Positions 1,209 to 64,000 of a stretch of DNA of 64,000 bases are shown in pieces. Position 1 is the stretch's first letter; each line of letters opens with the position of its first letter. The position numbers and the translations under genes were made by a program. The notes beneath the pieces were generated by a model that saw only the letters and a program-made list of their open reading frames with translations, was not told the origin of the DNA and ran no database searches. The stretch comes from an uncultured Verrucomicrobiae bacterium (GTDB lineage: Bacteria; Verrucomicrobiota; Verrucomicrobiia; Palsa-1439), in contig CAWEWF010000001.1 of the NCBI GenBank assembly GCA_963812605.1, positions 355,580 to 419,579 of the forward strand. Direction: 5' to 3'.

Positions 1209-2227
1209 TCCTTTTTCTCCGACTCGTAAACGAGTCCAATCGATTTGCGCCAGCGGTCGAGCGCCTGCATGTTGCCCAGCGAATCATTCCAACTCATCGC
1301 GGGCGCCTGGCGTTGTTCAACGTGCTCGGCGACGTGATCGGCTTCAATCGCATAGGCGGGCTGCGTTGATTCCACGATGATCTCCTGTTGCGGTTCGCCC
1401 TTGCGTTCGATAAACAGCCTGCTCGTCGTGCCATCGTTGATCTGCGTCCACGGTGCGGGCACGAAGATATTTCCATTCGAGCCGCAGATGCGCAGCGTAT
1501 TGTGTTGCTGCACTTCGACGCTGGTGGCCAGGGCCGCGAGGATGTCGCCGGGGAATTTCAGCGAGGCGGTGGCCCACGTGTCGACGCCGGTCGACGCCAA
1601 ATGTCCAACGCCTTTCACCTCAAGCGGGTCTGCGAACGGCTGGCCGGCAGCGATGCCCGCGACGAGACGTGACATGGACATCGGATAACAACCGACATCG
1701 AGGATGCTGCCGCCGCCGAGGGCGTTCTTGAACAGGCGGGCTTCGGGATTGAAATCCCTGTGAAAACCGAAAGACGCATGGATGACCCGCACCTCGCCGA
1801 TGATTTTCTTGCGAAGAAGTTCGATGAGTTTTGCGGTCTGCGGATGGCAGCGGTACATGAACGCTTCCATGAGAAAGACATCATGCTTTCGCGCCGCGTC
1901 GACGACCGCCAGCGCTTCCGAGTGGTTCAGTGTCAACGGCTTTTCGCAGAGAATGTGTTTGCCGGCCTTGGCGGCCTTGAGGCACCACTCGGCGTGCAGG
2001 GAGTGCGGCGTGGAGATGTAGACTGCCTGCACCTGGGAATCGGCGAGCAACGCGTCGTACGTGTTGTAGCCACTCGGTACGTGATACTCGGCGGCGAACT
2101 TGTCGGCACTTGCCTGCGAACGGCTGCCAACGGCAGCAAGTTTACCGGTTTTGGATTGGGAAAGCTGCTTGGCGAAGATGCCGGCAATTCGACCGGTTCC
2201 CAGAATGCCCCACGAAAGCGAGTTCAT
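1205..2227 (-). CDS. Gfo/Idh/MocA family NAD(P)-dependent oxidoreductase
   Basis: N-terminal Rossmann motif ILGTGRIAG; conserved EKPL motif; 340 aa typical of the family. Start overlaps the GH28 stop. Confidence 0.8.
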   Translation of the reverse strand: MNSLSWGILGTGRIAGIFAKQLSQSKTGKLAAVGSRSQASADKFAAEYHVPSGYNTYDALLADSQVQAVYISTPHSLHAEWCLKAAKAGKHILCEKPLTLNHSEALAVVDAARKHDVFLMEAFMYRCHPQTAKLIELLRKKIIGEVRVIHASFGFHRDFNPEARLFKNALGGGSILDVGCYPMSMSRLVAGIAAGQPFADPLEVKGVGHLASTGVDTWATASLKFPGDILAALATSVEVQQHNTLRICGSNGNIFVPAPWTQINDGTTSRLFIERKGEPQQEIIVESTQPAYAIEADHVAEHVEQRQAPAMSWNDSLGNMQALDRWRKSIGLVYESEKKE

Positions 2228-6868: not shown

Positions 6869-8365
6869 TTAAGCGCTGATCCCGGCCATCAAACGGAGCA
6901 GGGTTTCCTGGCTGGCCTGCGCGCGCGAAACCTCGCCAACCAAACGTCCATTGCGCAAGACCAAAATGCGCGTGGAGAGGTTGATCACCTCGGGAAGCTC
7001 GCTGGAAATCAGGAGCACGCCGTTGCCTTTATTCGCAAGTTCATCGATGAGACCGTGGATTTCTGCCTTGGCGCCCACGTCCACGCCGCGTGTGGGTTCG
7101 TCGACGATCAACACGTGACAATCCGCCGCCAGCCATTTCCCGAGGACGACTTTTTGCTGGTTGCCACCCGATAATCCCGCGACCACTGATTCGGTGCTGG
7201 GAGCCCTCACATGAAGGAGGTCGAAGTATTTTTGGGCGATCCGCCGTTCCGCCCCGAAGCGCACCCAGCCCAGGCCCGCGAACCTCTCCAGGGTGGGCAG
7301 AGTTGTATTTTCCCGCGCGTTCATCATCATCACCAAGCCGTGCCGTTTGCGGTCTTCGGGAACCATTCCAATATGATGGCGCATGGCAACCGACGGCTGG
7401 CGCAACGGCATCGGCTTGCCGCGCACGCGGACATGACCGGTCGCCAACCGGTCGAGTCCAAACAACGCCTCGGCAATCTCCGTGCGTCCGGCTCCCACCA
7501 ATCCGGCGAAACCAAGCACCTCGCCGGCGCGCAATTGGAAAGAGATATTCTCGAACTTGCCGGGGCTGGAGAGATCCTCCACGCGCAGCAACTCTTCGCC
7601 AGGCTCAGCCTGAAGATGGCGGGAGAAATATGCCTCCAGCGTGCGACCGATCATCATCTGTACCAAGCTGTTACGGTCGAGTTCCGCTGCGGATTTTGTC
7701 GCCACGTGCTGGCCGTCGCGCAATACGGTGATCGTATCGCAGAGATGATAGATCTCCTCCAGTCGATGCGATACGTAAATCGCGGTCACGCCTTGCGCCT
7801 GCAACCGCTTGATCAATTGGAAGAGATGGTCGCTCTCGATCTGTGACAGGCTGCTCGTTGGTTCGTCGAAGATCAGGATGCGCGCGCCATGCGAGACCGC
7901 TGCGGCGATCTGGACCAGTTGCTGTTGGCTGACCGGCAACGCGCCCACAAGTTTTGTCGGATCGATCTTCGCCTGGATGGCGGTCAGGTATTCCCTGGCT
8001 CGGCGCAACATTTCACGGCGGGAAACGAATGTCGCTCGCGCGGGCAGATGGCCCAGGCAGAGGTTTTCCGCGACGGTAAGGTTTTCACAGAAAGCCAGTT
8101 CCTGATGCACGATGCCGATGCCGGCGGCCATCGCATCGCTGGGACTTCCGAACCGCGCCGTCTTGCCGTCGACGAGCAATTCGCCTTCATCGGGCCTGTA
8201 GATACCCGCCAGGATTTTGCCCAGCGTGCTTTTGCCGGCGCCATTCTCGCCGCAGAGCGCGTGGCACGAGCCCGGCGCAACGTCGAAGCCCACGTTCCGC
8301 AACGCCTGTACGCCGGGAAAGCGCTTGCCGATCCCGCGAAATTGAATGATCGGATTCTCAGCCAT
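6869..8365 (-). CDS. Sugar ABC transporter ATP-binding protein (two fused ABC domains, RbsA/MglA-like)
   Basis: Two Walker A motifs (GENGAGKST; second domain), LSGGNQQK signature; 498 aa. Confidence 0.85.
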   Translation of the reverse strand: MAENPIIQFRGIGKRFPGVQALRNVGFDVAPGSCHALCGENGAGKSTLGKILAGIYRPDEGELLVDGKTARFGSPSDAMAAGIGIVHQELAFCENLTVAENLCLGHLPARATFVSRREMLRRAREYLTAIQAKIDPTKLVGALPVSQQQLVQIAAAVSHGARILIFDEPTSSLSQIESDHLFQLIKRLQAQGVTAIYVSHRLEEIYHLCDTITVLRDGQHVATKSAAELDRNSLVQMMIGRTLEAYFSRHLQAEPGEELLRVEDLSSPGKFENISFQLRAGEVLGFAGLVGAGRTEIAEALFGLDRLATGHVRVRGKPMPLRQPSVAMRHHIGMVPEDRKRHGLVMMMNARENTTLPTLERFAGLGWVRFGAERRIAQKYFDLLHVRAPSTESVVAGLSGGNQQKVVLGKWLAADCHVLIVDEPTRGVDVGAKAEIHGLIDELANKGNGVLLISSELPEVINLSTRILVLRNGRLVGEVSRAQASQETLLRLMAGISA

Positions 8366-59067: not shown

Positions 59068-59102
59068 GGCGGGCCTTTCAATTCTGATTCATGTAGTAGC
59101 GC

Positions 59103-60134
59103 TCAAGGAAGTTGACCGGACCGCGGTTCCTCGGCCTGTAGCTGTGGTTGCTCGATCTGGCCGAGTTTGGCGTCGAATTTGGCGAGCGCTTTTTCGCCTT
59201 CGGAATAGCTGCCCTGCGCGTTGGTCAGGTGCTTGCCGAGGACACGGAAACTTTCCTGCACGCGTTCGAAGTCGCCGCGCAGGCGGGCGAGCGTGTTGAG
59301 GATTTCCTGGGCGCGCTCTTCGACCTGCATCCCGCGCAGGCCGAGCAGGATGGTCTGCAGGTACGCGTAGAAGCTGTTCGGCGAAACGGGCACGACACGT
59401 TTCTCCAGCGCGTAGCTGAACAACGGCCGTTCCTCGCCCGAAGCACTCGCCTCTTCCTTGATGATGGTCTCGTAGTATACGTTTTCCGCGGGAACATACA
59501 TCAGCGCGAAGTTGTAGGTGCCTTCGTCGGGCAGGATGTATTTCGTGGCGATGGCATCGACGTGCTTTTTCACGTCGCGCAGGAATTGTTTACGGGCCGC
59601 GATGCGCTCGGAGTCGCTCTGCGAGTCCAGGATGCGGCGGAAGTTTTCGAGCGGGAACTTGGAATCGACCGGCACGAGCTTGTTGCCGATCTGGATGACC
59701 GCGTCCACCGCCTCGCCGCTGCGAAAACGATGTTGCAGTTTGAAATGTTCGGGCGGCAGGATCTGCGCGAGCAGGTCGCCCAGAAACAATTCGCCCATCC
59801 CACCGCGCAGTTTTGGCGCGCGGAGGATGTTCACCAACTCCGCCGCGGCCTTGCCGACCTCGTGAATCTGCCCGACTTTTTCCCGGAGATCGCCGACAAC
59901 CTTCGCGGCATTGTCGAGGCGGCTGTTCATTTGCGCGCTGGATTGCTGCAAGTTCTCGGAGACGGTCTGCCCAAATTTATCAAGCCGCTCCTGGAATGCG
60001 CTTACCTGCTGCTGGAGGAGCAGCAACGATTGGTCGGCCTGCTTCGGCCGGTTGCGTTCGCGTAGCACCACGGCGATCAGCGCCGCGACCGCGATCAAAG
60101 TGAGCAGGCCAATGATAATGACGACAGAGGGCAC
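59103..60134 (-). CDS. rmuC: DNA recombination protein RmuC
   Basis: N-terminal TM helix, long coiled coil, conserved RmuC C-terminal region (VPVDSKFPLENF...YILPDEG). Confidence 0.8.
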   Translation of the reverse strand: MPSVVIIIGLLTLIAVAALIAVVLRERNRPKQADQSLLLLQQQVSAFQERLDKFGQTVSENLQQSSAQMNSRLDNAAKVVGDLREKVGQIHEVGKAAAELVNILRAPKLRGGMGELFLGDLLAQILPPEHFKLQHRFRSGEAVDAVIQIGNKLVPVDSKFPLENFRRILDSQSDSERIAARKQFLRDVKKHVDAIATKYILPDEGTYNFALMYVPAENVYYETIIKEEASASGEERPLFSYALEKRVVPVSPNSFYAYLQTILLGLRGMQVEERAQEILNTLARLRGDFERVQESFRVLGKHLTNAQGSYSEGEKALAKFDAKLGQIEQPQLQAEEPRSGQLP

Positions 60135-60270
60135 GGTCCAAAGCTAACATTTGGCCACGCCGACGGCAATTCTTTGGTTTCAGGCGGGCCTCTCGTGTTA
60201 ACACCTTTTTAACGCATCGGCGCGGGGTTTTAATTAACGGTCTTTCGCAAACGCTGCGATGCTTTGGGGT

Positions 60271-62061
60271 ATGAACGCGCATGAGATTATTCAGATTATA
60301 CTTTTCTTCGGAATCGGCATCGCCCTGACGCCGCCACTGGGTCGATTCATGGCGAAGGTGTTCAAGGGTGAGAGAACGTTCCTGCATCCCGTTCTCCAGC
60401 CAATCGAGAACCTGGTTTATCGGTTGACGGGGGTTGACCCCGGCCAGGAAATGTCGTGGCCCAAGTATTTGGGGGCCGTCGTGATCATGACCTGCGTGGG
60501 GTTCGCTTCGCTGATGGCGATCCTGATGACACAGGTGTGGTTGCCCCTCAACCCGATGAAGATCGCCAATAACTCCTGGCATCTCGCTTTCAATACAGCG
60601 TGGAGTTTCACCTGCAACGCGGACTGGCAGTCGTACACGGGCGAATCCGCCATGAGCTATTTTTCCCAGACGATCGGACTCTCGGTGCACCAATTCCTGA
60701 GTGGCGCGGCCGGGCTCGCGGTGCTGATCGCGGTGGGGCGGGCCTTGAAGCGCCACACGACCAGGACCATCGGCAATTTCTGGGTGGACCTGACCCGGGC
60801 CCTTTTGTACATCGTGATCCCGCTGTCCGTGGTCTGGGCGATTCCGCTGGTCTGGCAGGGTTGCCCGCAAACCTGGAAACCATACCCGGACGCCAAGCTG
60901 ACAGAACCGTACACCACACAAGTGCCAAAGACCGACGACAAGGGGAACCCGGTCAAGGATGACAAGGGCAATCCGGTCATGGTCGACCAGAAGGTCGAGA
61001 CGCAGAGTCTTCCCATCGGCCCGGTCGCATCCTTCGAATCCTGCAAACAGCTTTTCACGAACGGCGGCGGCTACTACGGCGTCAATAGCGCCCATCCGTA
61101 TGAAAACCCGACGCCGCTGGCGAACTTTCTCGAAATGCTGGCGATCATCGTGGTGCCGATGGCTCAGGTTTATATGTTCGGCCTGCTGATCGGCAATTTG
61201 AAGCACGCGTGGTGTTTGTTCGCCGTGATGCTCGGGCTGTATTTGCTTTCCTTCGGCATCGCGTGGTGGGCCGAGACGCGGCCGAACCCAGTCGTCGCCA
61301 ACATCCAGCCATTAATGGAAGGCAAGGAGCAACGGTTCGGCGTGATGAACAGCGTGCTCTGGGGCGTCTCCTGCACGGCGATCGACAACGGCTCGGTGAA
61401 TTCGATGCACGACAGTTGGATGCCGCTGGCCGGCATGATGCCGATGTGGAACATCCTGATCGGGGAAATCATGTTCGGCGGCATCGGGTGCGGCGTGTAT
61501 TGCATGTTGTTCCACGTGCTGATCACAGTCTTTATCGCGGGGTTGATGATTGGGCGCACGCCGGAATATCTGGGCAAGAAACTCGGCGCGTGGGTGGCCA
61601 CGTGGGCGGTGATTGGCGTGCTGTTGCCGAATGCCGCGTGCTTGATTCCGACTGCGCTTTCGCTCATGCCCAATATAGTGCCCTCGGGATTGGCGAGTCT
61701 GGCCAATAACGGCCCGCACGGGTTGAGCGAAGTGCTCTATGCTTTTGGGGAGGCCGCCAACAACAACGGCAGCGCTTTCGCCGGATTGAACGCCAACGTG
61801 CCGTGGTATAACGTTGCGCTCGGCATTGCGATCATCATCGGCCGGTTCGCTCCGATCGCGGCGGCGCTGGCAATTGTCGGCCGTCTGGCCTCCGAAAAGA
61901 CCGTCGAAGCTTCCTCCGGCACGCTGCCGACGCACGGTTGGACGTTTGGCCTCACGCTGACGGGGGTCATCATCATCGTCGCCGCGTTGACATTCTTTCC
62001 GGTGCTTTGCCTGGGACCGATCATCGAGCACGGCCTGATGCTGGCCGGACGGGTGTTTTGA
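60271..62061 (+). CDS. kdpA: Potassium-transporting ATPase subunit A
   Basis: Full-length KdpA pattern including the selectivity-filter-like regions (NTAWSFTCNADWQSYTGES; TNGGGYYGVNSAHP). Confidence 0.9.
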   Translation: MNAHEIIQIILFFGIGIALTPPLGRFMAKVFKGERTFLHPVLQPIENLVYRLTGVDPGQEMSWPKYLGAVVIMTCVGFASLMAILMTQVWLPLNPMKIANNSWHLAFNTAWSFTCNADWQSYTGESAMSYFSQTIGLSVHQFLSGAAGLAVLIAVGRALKRHTTRTIGNFWVDLTRALLYIVIPLSVVWAIPLVWQGCPQTWKPYPDAKLTEPYTTQVPKTDDKGNPVKDDKGNPVMVDQKVETQSLPIGPVASFESCKQLFTNGGGYYGVNSAHPYENPTPLANFLEMLAIIVVPMAQVYMFGLLIGNLKHAWCLFAVMLGLYLLSFGIAWWAETRPNPVVANIQPLMEGKEQRFGVMNSVLWGVSCTAIDNGSVNSMHDSWMPLAGMMPMWNILIGEIMFGGIGCGVYCMLFHVLITVFIAGLMIGRTPEYLGKKLGAWVATWAVIGVLLPNAACLIPTALSLMPNIVPSGLASLANNGPHGLSEVLYAFGEAANNNGSAFAGLNANVPWYNVALGIAIIIGRFAPIAAALAIVGRLASEKTVEASSGTLPTHGWTFGLTLTGVIIIVAALTFFPVLCLGPIIEHGLMLAGRVF

Positions 62062-62084
62062 GATCGCGCCTTTGGCGGCGATGG

Positions 62085-62429
62085 TCAGGGCGTTTGGAGC
62101 AAGGCCTTCAGTTTGCCACGGACTGCCTGCATGATATCCGGCGGTAACATTCCAATTGCGCCGCTGATCACCGAATCATTCAAGGTGACCAGTTTGTCCG
62201 CCCGAATTACGGAGGCGCTTTTGAGGCCGATTTGTTTCCAAGCCGGGTGACCCGGGGAAATTGGCGTGGCCGAAGGAAGCCGTTCCGCTTCCATCCTGGT
62301 TGTGATGAACGCGACCACGAAATCGTTGGCCGTATCACCCGCGGCGAGAACGACGCACGGACGCCGTTTCGCGTCCGTGAGCGAAGTGAATGGAAAAGCG
62401 GCGATGACAATCTCGCCGGCTTGGAACAT
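62085..62429 (-). CDS. PemK/MazF-like endoribonuclease toxin
   Basis: EIVIAAFPFTSLTDAKRRPCVVL...ASVIRADKLVTL pattern typical of PemK/MazF; 114 aa. Confidence 0.7.
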   Translation of the reverse strand: MFQAGEIVIAAFPFTSLTDAKRRPCVVLAAGDTANDFVVAFITTRMEAERLPSATPISPGHPAWKQIGLKSASVIRADKLVTLNDSVISGAIGMLPPDIMQAVRGKLKALLQTP

Positions 62430-62707
62430 TACCGGCGCTCTCCGAAACGCGGGTTGCGGCGGCCCGGCAACACGTCTGCGTCGGAGTACAACTCCGGCTC
62501 CTCGCGCAGGAAATCAAAGGCTCCGCCCGCGTCGGCCAGCCGCTCGAGATCGATGCCATTCTCGCCTTCCTCGAACGCCAGCACCGCCAGATGAGCGTGC
62601 GCTGGCAGTTCGACGCTTTTCGGCAATCGCAGCACCCCGCCGCTGACTTCAATCGGGATCATTTTCATCGTTGCCCGTAGCATAACCCGTCCGGCGGGCC
62701 GTTGCAA
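62429..62707 (-). CDS. PemI/MazE-like (AbrB/SpoVT-fold) antitoxin candidate
   Basis: MKMIPIEVSGGVLRLPKSVEL resembles the swapped-hairpin antitoxin N-terminus. The stop overlaps the toxin start by 1 nt. The probable real start is an internal Met, about 79 aa. Confidence 0.45.
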   Translation of the reverse strand: MQRPAGRVMLRATMKMIPIEVSGGVLRLPKSVELPAHAHLAVLAFEEGENGIDLERLADAGGAFDFLREEPELYSDADVLPGRRNPRFGERR

Positions 62708-62799
62708 TCACTCTCATGGGACGCGCCGCCACTTCTTTCTTGCGGCTCATTACCGATAAAGCCAGGTACGAATGGCACAGTGGGGGCGTTAACGGCTTG

Positions 62800-63597
62800 C
62801 TAGGCCACGTGTTCATTCGATTTGCCGAGATTGCACTGCGAACAGAGTGTCTGAAGATTCTCCAGCACAGTCTCACCACCTTTGCTCCAAGCTATGATGT
62901 GATCGATGTGCAGCTCCACATTCATTGTCTTCGCTGGGCTAACGCCACAGTTGCAACAGGTGAATCTGTCACGATTGAGCACTTTCCAACGCAGGCGGAG
63001 CGAAGGCTCCCGGCCCGTCTTCCGTCGAATCGGTTCGCCGCCGATCCTTTTAGGTTCAGGAGATTCACGCTCAACCGAGTTGGCGTAGTCGACGAATGCC
63101 TCAAGCGCGGCAGTCCAACCCCCGAAGCGGCGAATGTACGGCCCTTCCGAGATGTTTGATGTGGCCTGCGCCAGTTCCCTCCGTCGCGGCTGCCGCCCAT
63201 AGTGCTGCCACAAGACAAACAAATTCTCAAACAGGCGCTCATCGGGAATGTTGATCTCATTGGACAAAGAAAGGCCTGCTTTAACAAGCGCCTTGTTCCA
63301 TGAGCCGAATCGTCGAGCAATGGTGGTGGGGGAGTAGTTCCCATGCTCCATGTATCGGGGTTGCGACACGGTGGGCGCATTGAGCAGTTGTGCAACGCGA
63401 CGCAGGTCGGTAAGTAGCTCGTCGTCACTGACAGGCTGACCTGAAACATGAGAAAGCCGAAATGATCCGTTCTTCATCGAACGGTATACAGGATACTCGC
63501 GGCTAAGATTCTTTGACAAGATTGGAATGACACCAGGCCATTGGGGCGTGGTGATTCCGTGCCGATCCATCTGCCGGAGACAGGGATGATGGTTCAA
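62800..63597 (-). CDS. HNH endonuclease with two N-terminal homing-endonuclease-associated repeats
   Basis: C-terminal CCNCG...HIDHIIAWSKGGETVLENLQTLCSQCNLGKSN is a classic HNH motif. Two upstream repeats carry RRFGSW..AL. Confidence 0.8.
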   Translation of the reverse strand: MNHHPCLRQMDRHGITTPQWPGVIPILSKNLSREYPVYRSMKNGSFRLSHVSGQPVSDDELLTDLRRVAQLLNAPTVSQPRYMEHGNYSPTTIARRFGSWNKALVKAGLSLSNEINIPDERLFENLFVLWQHYGRQPRRRELAQATSNISEGPYIRRFGGWTAALEAFVDYANSVERESPEPKRIGGEPIRRKTGREPSLRLRWKVLNRDRFTCCNCGVSPAKTMNVELHIDHIIAWSKGGETVLENLQTLCSQCNLGKSNEHVA

Positions 63598-63666
63598 CTG
63601 CGTTAATGATTTCTTAACGCCTCGCTACCCCCTTTTAATTACCGCCTGTCGATAGGTGCTGTCATG

Positions 63667-64000
63667 TTAGTGGCGTAACGGAAGACAATCATGAGCACAA
63701 AAGTTGAAATCAAATACTCCGAGTTGGTGCAGCAGGCGGTCATCAATTCGTTCAAGAAACTGAATCCGCGCGATGAGATCAAGAACCTGGTGATGTTCGT
63801 TGTCTGGGTTGGATCGATCTGGACAACCATCATCCTGTTCACGCCGGGCGGATGCAACCTGTTCAACGTCCAGATTTGCCTCTGGCTGTGGTTTACCTGT
63901 CTGTTCGCCAACTTCGCCGAGGCGATGGCGGAAGGCCGGGGCAAAGCCCATGCCGACGCATTGCGCAAGCTGCGCACCAAGACGATGGCCCGCAAACTCC
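63667..64000 (+). CDS. kdpB: Potassium-transporting ATPase subunit B, N-terminal part (runs off window end)
   Basis: NPVMFVVWVGSI...WLWFTCLFANFAEAMAEGRGKAHADALR matches the KdpB N-terminus. Confidence 0.85.

Follow-up and report, generated by a model that had tools for sequence, protein, structure and literature searches.

An operon whose genes encode subunits of a single machine is considered resistant to insertions within it, because polarity and shifted subunit proportions come at a cost. Free-standing homing genes can lie between conserved genes, as in phage T4, where the HNH homing gene mobE sits between nrdA and nrdB. Other described systems bearing on the present case are the type II toxin-antitoxin (TA) pairs of the MazEF/PemIK (Kid/Kis) kind, the hotspots that collect defence and accessory genes, and the insertion sequences whose outward promoter restores expression of the genes downstream. 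The kdp genes are needed conditionally, under K+ limitation, and the initial annotation of the DNA studied here went too far in calling the operon essential. In E. coli the site of the regulator KdpE consists of the half-sites TTTATA and TTTACA, 5 bp apart, with a leading TT that is invariant across genera (PMC3264566). Here we analyse a kdp locus of an uncultured Verrucomicrobiae bacterium (GTDB lineage Palsa-1439; contig CAWEWF010000001.1 of NCBI GenBank assembly GCA_963812605.1, positions 355,580 to 419,579), which lies at the end of a stretch of 64,000 nucleotides (nt), hereafter the window. Between kdpA and kdpB it carries three genes on the opposite strand, which together with their surroundings we call the islet. 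The literature yielded no paper that describes a kdp operon interrupted by a TA or HNH gene. The islet is a variant of things already known: TA and nuclease islets, hotspots of accessory genes and insertions that restore a promoter.

The overall pattern makes it probable that the kdpA-kdpB gap holds a composite islet of independently mobile, self-contained modules, all antisense to kdp, followed by a copy of the kdp promoter before kdpB, and that kdp is thereby split in two units. A type II TA operon, with an AF2212-like antitoxin, a PemK/MazF toxin and its own promoter, would already have occupied the junction in the ancestor that the window shares with a related soil contig (L101). A solitary HNH-repeat endonuclease gene, also with a promoter of its own, would occupy a variable slot that other genes fill in L101 and in a further contig, L089. 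With a second KdpE-box promoter copy on the kdpB side, two transcription units would result, one reading kdpA and the other kdpB, kdpC and downstream genes, and the polarity of the islet would be removed. The features are as follows:

60194-60267, plus strand: native kdp promoter region, with a GTTAAC-N5-TTTAAC box, TTTTAATTA and a -10-like GATGCT
60259-62061, plus strand: kdpA (clade A1) open reading frame (ORF), likely ATG at 60271, 596 amino acids (aa); Pfam KdpA 1.6e-212, TIGR00680
62062-62084, no strand: 23-nt spacer between the convergent kdpA and toxin stops, with a small GC hairpin, ATCGCGCC-TTT-GGCGGCGAT
62082-62712, minus strand: TA module, from promoter to toxin stop, about 631 bp, self-contained, with its own candidate promoter
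62085-62429, minus strand: PemK/MazF-family toxin, 114 aa, intact; PF02452 PemK_toxin 7.1e-14
62429-62707, minus strand: antitoxin ORF; gene 62429-62668 (ATG at 62668), 79 aa, its stop overlapping the toxin ATG by 1 nt
62679-62707, minus strand: candidate TA promoter, -35 TTGCAA (62707-62702), 17-nt spacer, -10 TATGCT (62684-62679)
62783-63535, minus strand: self-contained HNH module of about 753 bp, which begins with the promoter and closes 17 nt beyond the stop
62800-63597, minus strand: HNH endonuclease ORF; gene 62800-63477 (ATG at 63477), 225 aa
63490-63519, minus strand: candidate HNH promoter, TTGTCA, 18 nt, TATCCT; 9 of 12 matches in a promoter scan
63599-63669, plus strand: second kdp promoter copy, directed towards kdpB, with GTTAAT-N5-CTTAAC, TTTTAATTA, 22 nt and a -10-like TGT-CATGTT
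63691-64000, plus strand: 5' end of kdpB, running past the window end; TIGR01497 6.7e-31 over the 103 codons in the window

Much of what the initial annotation had read from the letters is borne out. The junction is split by 1629 nt (kdpA stop at 62061, kdpB ATG at 63691), where about 1.6 kb had been given; the ORFs and Pfam domains agree with three minus-strand genes, a PemK-like toxin, a small ORF upstream of it and an HNH protein with repeats; the coordinates place the toxin stop 23 nt from that of kdpA; and the kdpB call is right. The arrangement is not an assembly artefact, since independent assemblies from three samples (ENA ERZ25039605, whose contig_42903 is our L001, and Logan ERR12036779 and ERR10755940) have identical junctions, with 99.9-100% nt identity to the window throughout and the arrangement unchanged in all three (L001-L003); L101, with the 3' end of kdpA and the TA pair at 89.5% identity, likewise speaks against an artefact.

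A KdpA scan with one genome per GTDB species yielded 77 related kdp loci, nearly all from metagenome-assembled genomes of Verrucomicrobiota (Opitutaceae, Verrucomicrobiia, Limisphaerales) from peat and soil, about 70 of them with both kdpA and kdpB. In these two-gene relatives the spacing between the genes is about 2-50 nt, with the exception of two loci at 144 and 240 nt, and tblastn found no match to toxin, antitoxin or HNH protein in any of the 77. The nearest relatives (L004, L005 and L057), whose KdpA and KdpB are 90-91% and 91-93% identical to those of the window, have an empty junction that reads ...TTC TAG AGAGAAACTT ATG AGC ACA AAA..., to be compared with ...TTT TGA, 1629 nt, ATG AGC ACA AAA in the window. 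The GC content at third codon positions (GC3) is also lower in the toxin gene (0.66) and the HNH gene (0.62) than in kdpA (0.80) and kdpB (0.79). From these comparisons, the gap is a lineage-specific insertion, as first suspected, and the alternative of an ancient fixed arrangement is ruled out by the 77 related loci, which lack the islet genes and, wherever both genes are present, have kdpA and kdpB adjacent.

A further junction deserves mention. In L040 a 237-nt non-coding spacer (7900-8136) flanked by GAATCCAA direct repeats, and without a kdp-promoter match, lies between kdpA and kdpB, and may represent a small non-autonomous insertion at the same junction.

The toxin covers nearly the whole of its family profile (residues 4-111 on positions 2-109 of the 109 of PF02452), and its homologues are likewise 114 aa long. 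The MazF6 toxin of M. tuberculosis matches it weakly (E 0.0095), with the KRRP motif aligned. By family it is presumably an mRNA-cutting nuclease. The start of the antitoxin was placed at the ATG at 62668 because most of its 87 homologues, largely Verrucomicrobial where the source names an organism, are 79 aa long; a PemK gene lies directly downstream in 64 of the 75 antitoxin loci with enough downstream sequence. The antitoxin had been taken for AbrB-like, which does not hold: neither PF04014 nor any other Pfam family matched it or 40 members of its family, so that the AbrB/MazE signature is absent, and searches of Pfam, NCBIfam, PADLOC and the PDB gave no match, the best PDB profile being VapB15 at E 0.34. 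Four of ten remote relatives scanned (P0236, P0273, P0276 and P0289) match PF01954, and the antitoxin is therefore a divergent AF2212-like protein, with a domain usually paired with PIN/VapC toxins. A profile of the antitoxin recovered only 131 cluster representatives from 1.84 billion protein representatives. Its C-terminal tail, ADAGGAFDFLREEPELYSDAD..RRNPRFG, is strongly conserved and presumably binds the toxin. As judged from these searches, the antitoxin family is small and undescribed, has no Pfam model and distant AF2212-like kin, and is paired with MazF-type toxins.

Compared with MazEF/PemIK, the islet pair is alike in its antitoxin-first two-gene operon with a 1-nt overlap, its 114-aa toxin matching the full PemK_toxin profile, its own candidate promoter and its recurrence at many unrelated chromosomal sites. 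It differs in its antitoxin, whose kin are AF2212-like (PF01954) and not MazE/AbrB (SpoVT). By what is known of the family, the pair could act as an addiction module that retains the islet. PADLOC gave no match for the toxin. The toxin gene is frameshifted in L101 (921-1264) and split into two ORFs in L100 (553-898), with the antitoxin intact, which may reflect toxin decay or sequencing error.

The limits of the TA module are sharp. Contigs L089-L093 match the window at 81.6% nt identity over exactly 62082-62712, one end of the match falling at the toxin stop and the other a little above the -35 element. The hexamers and spacing of the candidate TA promoter, which lies 10 nt upstream of the antitoxin ATG, are kept in L089, L101, L094, L097, L103 and others, while the spacer sequence varies. 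Homologous pairs are found at unrelated sites, for example after polA or beside an acyl-CoA dehydrogenase gene, and never with the HNH gene; on short contigs the flank upstream of the TA promoter is a different one (L182) or of low complexity (L183). Across 80 metagenome loci recovered with the antitoxin profile, no kdp, HNH or TIR match occurs within the flanks of up to 4 kb per side, many contigs being shorter than that.

The HNH protein consists of two stretches of PF18780 HNH_repeat (3e-28) and a C-terminal Zn-type PF01844 HNH domain (6e-13). Its start was set at the ATG at 63477 because its homologues start there: an alignment of 11 of them begins at MKNGSF and has all family-invariant residues kept (the Cys residues, DH and N). 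On family grounds the protein would be active as a nuclease. There are 5660 homologues, the top matches being about 223 aa long and 65-79% identical (e.g., Methylomonas, Terracidiphilus), and the four whose context was read (79%, 76%, 72% and 68% identical) are solitary genes with unrelated flanks. The closest homologous region in nucleotide terms, L181, is 80.7% identical to the window over exactly 63535-62783, with unrelated flanks beyond; it has TTGTCG, 18 nt and TATCCT where the window has its candidate promoter, 12 nt upstream of the HNH ATG. In L081 (1484-2678) a homologue of 76% identity lies 41 nt downstream of a gene for an IS200-type Y1 transposase, which hints at one possible vehicle for this HNH family.

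The TA and HNH segments thus behave as modules, since TA homology ends at the toxin stop and the -35 element, HNH homology runs from promoter to just past the stop, and each is found elsewhere in unrelated flanks. At the level of sequence, then, the comparisons demonstrate an insertion, a modular structure and, as discussed below, the homology of the two kdp promoters. The idea of a selfish or mobile cassette survives as far as the insertion is concerned. It does not survive as a single cassette, the two modules being separately distributed and each bounded by its own promoter and stop.

The presence of an HNH gene raises the possibility that the islet spreads by homing, the endonuclease cutting insert-free kdp alleles and copying itself and the TA pair into them. 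The architecture of HNH domain and HNH_repeat is intact, and like free-standing HNH homing genes the islet gene is solitary, encodes DNA-binding repeats, has its own candidate promoter without an intron or intein, and is absent from related genomes; its placement between two subunit genes of one complex recalls in particular what is generally known of such genes in phages. Yet the family differs from them in being chromosomal, with its thousands of matches and high identity among the top ones, and close homologues occupy other loci, in unrelated flanks and not at kdp. It is not found full length in phages either: phage records match at the level of the domain only, covering at most 44% of the protein, and plasmid matches are at most 42% identical. 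L101 and L089, moreover, have the junction TA pair without the HNH gene. We therefore regard homing as a very improbable origin.

The composite reading is also supported by L101, which matches the window at 89.5% identity from 62024 to 62730, a stretch comprising the 3' end of kdpA, the spacer (20 nt in L101) and the TA pair. Upstream of the TA promoter, at 62730, the two part, and L101 runs on into another ORF, almost an orphan, with no family match and 5 homologues only, in unrelated context. Because L101 keeps both the kdpA end and the TA pair, the latter was at the junction before the window and L101 split, and the HNH gene arrived or was exchanged later.

A second filled junction is of another kind. 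Five runs of another study supplied contigs L089-L093; L089 alone spans the whole stretch, and L092 includes the kdpA-toxin junction. Read in the kdp direction, L089 shows a kdpA TGA that abuts the toxin stop (TGATCA) with no spacer, the toxin, the antitoxin, an isochorismatase fragment, a TIR gene, a kdp-type promoter (E 7e-11) that ends 4 nt before the kdpB ATG, and kdpB. The TIR protein is 365 aa long, of CAP12/Pycsar type, and matches PADLOC PDC-S35 at 4e-9. The fragment (1407-1580, minus strand), 57 codons from the C-terminus of an isochorismatase/nicotinamidase (PF00857 1.4e-5), begins exactly where TA homology ends, a scar left either by a deletion or by a previous genomic context. The L089 operon belongs to a paralogous type 2: the C-terminus of its KdpA shares 84-91% identity with its counterpart in the second kdp operon of L054, L009, L032 and L039, where kdpA and kdpB are 2-12 nt apart, versus about 51-55% with type-1 KdpA (51.5% for the window, about 54% for others of type 1).

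The junction thus has different cargo in three variants, HNH in the window, TIR and the isochorismatase fragment in L089 and the orphan ORF in L101, with a TA pair in all of them. In this it resembles defence and accessory-gene hotspots, where one core-gene junction holds different cargo per genome. It differs in lying inside an operon, between subunit genes of one transporter, with an extra copy of the operon promoter, and in being known from three variants only. Among the cargo, a match to a candidate defence family (PDC-S35) exists for the TIR protein alone; the HNH nuclease has matches in PADLOC at the level of the HNH domain, and the L101 ORF has none.

The similar layout of L089 could also mean that a single mobile element, consisting of the TA pair, exchangeable cargo and a kdp-type promoter, targets the junction between kdpA stop and kdpB start, its KdpE-dependent outward promoter making it non-polar. 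The L089 antitoxin and the first third of its toxin are 82-93% nt identical to the window, positions and orientation are alike at a type-2 junction, and flank-mediated homologous recombination did not carry the block there, because the coding flanks of L089 are type-2 up to the stop and start codons. The kdpB-side promoters of the window and L089 are reciprocal best matches (z about 4 versus shuffles in a local alignment), and both filled alleles have TGA stops where most empty ones have TAG or TAA. Against this, the rest of the L089 toxin is 65-83% identical to the window, no better than relatives at unrelated sites, which speaks for a mosaic history of the TA pair; the two promoters share 62%, hardly more than the 53-60% they share with other kdp promoters; the junction types known number just two; of the 80 other antitoxin-profile loci, none adjoins kdp; and neither recombinase, end repeats nor target-site duplication was found. 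A single element of this kind is, in our judgement, doubtful. We give no more credence to its fuller form, a junction-specific and polarity-neutral islet that would colonise kdpA/kdpB junctions of different operons, with read-through from the kdpA promoter, antisense across the TA pair and cargo, coupling toxin release or cargo expression to K+ starvation.

The composite reading also rests on the second promoter. An nhmmer profile made from the kdpA-upstream regions of 18 relatives, all other genomes, gave exactly two matches in the window, both on the plus strand, one before kdpA (E 2.8e-10) and one before kdpB (E 5.8e-7), the next being at E 4.6. In the relatives these regions show, at fixed distances, TTTAACG-N4-TTTTAACG, about 12 nt on TTTTAATTA, and 22 nt later CATAGT; the KdpE-type box within them consists of two 6-bp direct repeats, 11 bp apart, with the consensus TTTAAC-N5-TTTAAC. 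The kdpB-side copy ends about 21-22 nt before the kdpB ATG, within the 3-35 nt found in relatives, and a Shine-Dalgarno-like GGAAGA lies between. In the 77 relatives the profile never matches between adjacent kdpA and kdpB, its matches lying before kdpA copies and before a few further units within the kdp cluster. A stem-loop formed by GCGTTAA...TTAACGC upstream of kdpB was considered and dropped, these letters being better read as the two direct half-sites of the promoter box.

The box of the window has the architecture of the E. coli KdpE half-sites, and the E. coli kdpFABC promoter is alike in having two AT-rich direct repeats of 6 bp which start with TT, 5 bp between them and a weak -35 downstream (PMC3264566). 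The clade differs in its half-site, TTTAAC in place of TTTATA/TTTACA, and in that its element precedes several separate kdp-cluster units, among them, uniquely here, kdpB. By analogy with the family, KdpE would bind the second box and transcription would start there. We infer that kdpA and kdpBC now form separate units with a shared promoter type, because of the second copy and because KdpB and KdpC are intact and conserved: KdpA, KdpB and KdpC are full length, with 83-93% identity to those of L004. The polarity on kdpB and kdpC that the initial annotation expected is thus probably bypassed by the kdp-type promoter directly upstream of kdpB; antisense effects on the islet or on the 3' end of kdpA are possible.

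Several observations weigh against the composite reading. The kdpB-side box is weaker than its kdpA-side counterpart (25.5 vs 36.1 bits) and has lost the first T of each half-site. The islet contains no transposase or integrase, and so no machinery that would move the modules was seen. A target-site duplication, which had been suggested as a check, was not found on comparing the islet junctions with empty sites, and the search for terminal (inverted) repeats gave nothing significant, only short pairs at chance level. On the side of the antitoxin, the AlphaFold model has a pLDDT (predicted local distance difference test) of 62, a low confidence that makes it too poor for a fold search. On the longer contig L001, a 20-kb locus, no full transposase gene was called, only a faint HTH_Tnp_ISL3 match in a cut ORF at the far end; no integrase was called either. 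As to an integron cassette array, the 0-23 nt between the toxin stop and its neighbour leave no room for an attC, a reading made with no dedicated attC model. The islet is like insertion sequences with an outward promoter in having entered an operon with a promoter at its downstream edge that faces the next gene, and differs from them in the lack of transposase and terminal repeats and in a promoter that is a homologue of the operon's own regulated one, not a generic constitutive one.

If the promoter-like segment were inactive, the insertion would be polar and damaging, with kdpBC poorly expressed and the operon decaying, a loss tolerated thanks to other K+ uptake systems. The degenerate box would fit this, as would convergent transcription with a hairpin after kdpA, and a second kdp operon is frequent in relatives. 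The hairpin has no U-tract on either strand; the predicted fold of 62050-62100 reaches -19.0 kcal/mol on the plus strand and -10.5 on the minus strand. Such damage is, however, hard to reconcile with three intact Kdp proteins conserved at the level of orthologs, with a TA-at-junction state that persisted through the roughly 10% nt divergence between window and L101, and with a promoter copy in the correct orientation at a natural distance from the ATG. It appears improbable.

The history of kdpA in the clade provides another possible source for the second promoter. The KdpA tree resolves clade A1 (that of the window), A2 (a tandem paralogue with its own promoter) and A3 (the type-2 operon, with kdpF). 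Tandem A1/A2 paralogues, about 55-62% identical and each with a KdpE-box promoter, are present in many related Verrucomicrobia (L004 4109-7779; L005; L070; L035; L063; L028 6001-9907; L055; L006 8615-10399), and two different KdpA subunits may serve one KdpBC. With P for the promoter, the order is A2-P-A1-kdpB in L004, L005, L070 and L063 and A1-P-A2-kdpB in L028 and L055, while in L006 A2 follows kdpC. From an A1-P-A2-kdpB ancestor, the islet could have entered the spacer between A1 and P, with A2 later deleted and its promoter fused to kdpB. Tandem loci with their own promoters are common, the required order exists in the two loci just named, and in tandem loci the promoter starts 5-40 nt after the upstream kdpA stop. 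The closest relatives (L004, L005 and L070), by contrast, have the opposite order, with RmuC upstream as in the window; no A2 remnant occupies the few nucleotides between the promoter copy and kdpB; and the layout of L089 is alike although none of seven type-2 operons seen has a tandem kdpA. A relic of this kind is possible, and clearly less probable than a composite islet with a promoter copy. Otherwise the second promoter may have come in together with the islet or been acquired later.

Other observations touch the kdp promoters and genes. The ATG at 60271 is the likely kdpA start, given that the alignment of relatives begins at residue 5 and that the L001 gene call has 596 aa. In the window (60258-60271) the -10-like GATGCT includes the ATG at which the longest ORF opens, and its end lies 7 nt ahead of that likely start, which suggests a leaderless or near-leaderless kdpA mRNA. 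In type-1 operons, that of the window included, kdpA is directly preceded by the promoter, and kdpF is absent from that position. In type-2 operons a kdpF-like small ORF (…LVYLVVAVLRPEKF*) lies directly upstream of kdpA (L032 560-700, L009 1150-1277, L077, L018, L033). Further profile matches precede genes other than kdpABC in L045, L047, L048, L050, L064 and L073 (about 1.7 kb and 0.5 kb upstream of kdpA), and others are at L032 10858-10929 and L040 11437-11510. Such sites occur, for example, before a gene whose product has a P-II-like end, or after kdpC. The KdpE-type regulon of the clade may be organised as several short units.

Beyond the 3' end of the window, L001 has the full kdpB (694 aa, the protein 93% identical to that of L004), after which come kdpC, genes for a Usp protein and a Ser/Thr kinase, ORFs with KdpD domains, one for a histidine kinase and one for an OmpR-type regulator. 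Downstream of kdpC (L001 528-6020) are the Usp protein, the Ser/Thr protein kinase and a 118-aa protein of no known kind. KdpD function appears divided over three ORFs ahead of the response regulator, one with the KdpD N-terminal part, one with KdpD, Usp, DUF4118 and GAF, and a separate HisKA/HATPase. The KdpA of the window is 90-91% identical to the KdpA encoded next to kdpB in L004, L005 and L057. Rfam had no match at E <= 1 in 59900-64000, which covers the gap and the regions upstream of kdpA and kdpB. Long ORFs antisense to rmuC and kdpA in 59100-62100, up to 408 aa (e.g., 59980-61206, minus strand), are regarded as artefacts that the real genes produce through their high GC3.

The locus shows a way around the cost of an insertion in an operon for one machine: selfish or accessory modules on the opposite strand stand between the subunit genes, and the downstream part is preceded by a copy of the regulated promoter sequence that belongs to the operon itself. 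It provides a natural test case for TA and single-gene nuclease modules that spread as promoter-to-stop units without a recognisable recombinase. From the comparison a conserved KdpE-type promoter element can also be defined for uncultured Verrucomicrobia, and a small, undescribed family of antitoxins that pair with MazF-type toxins has emerged. Should the islet indeed target kdp junctions, it would represent a new kind of site-specific element.

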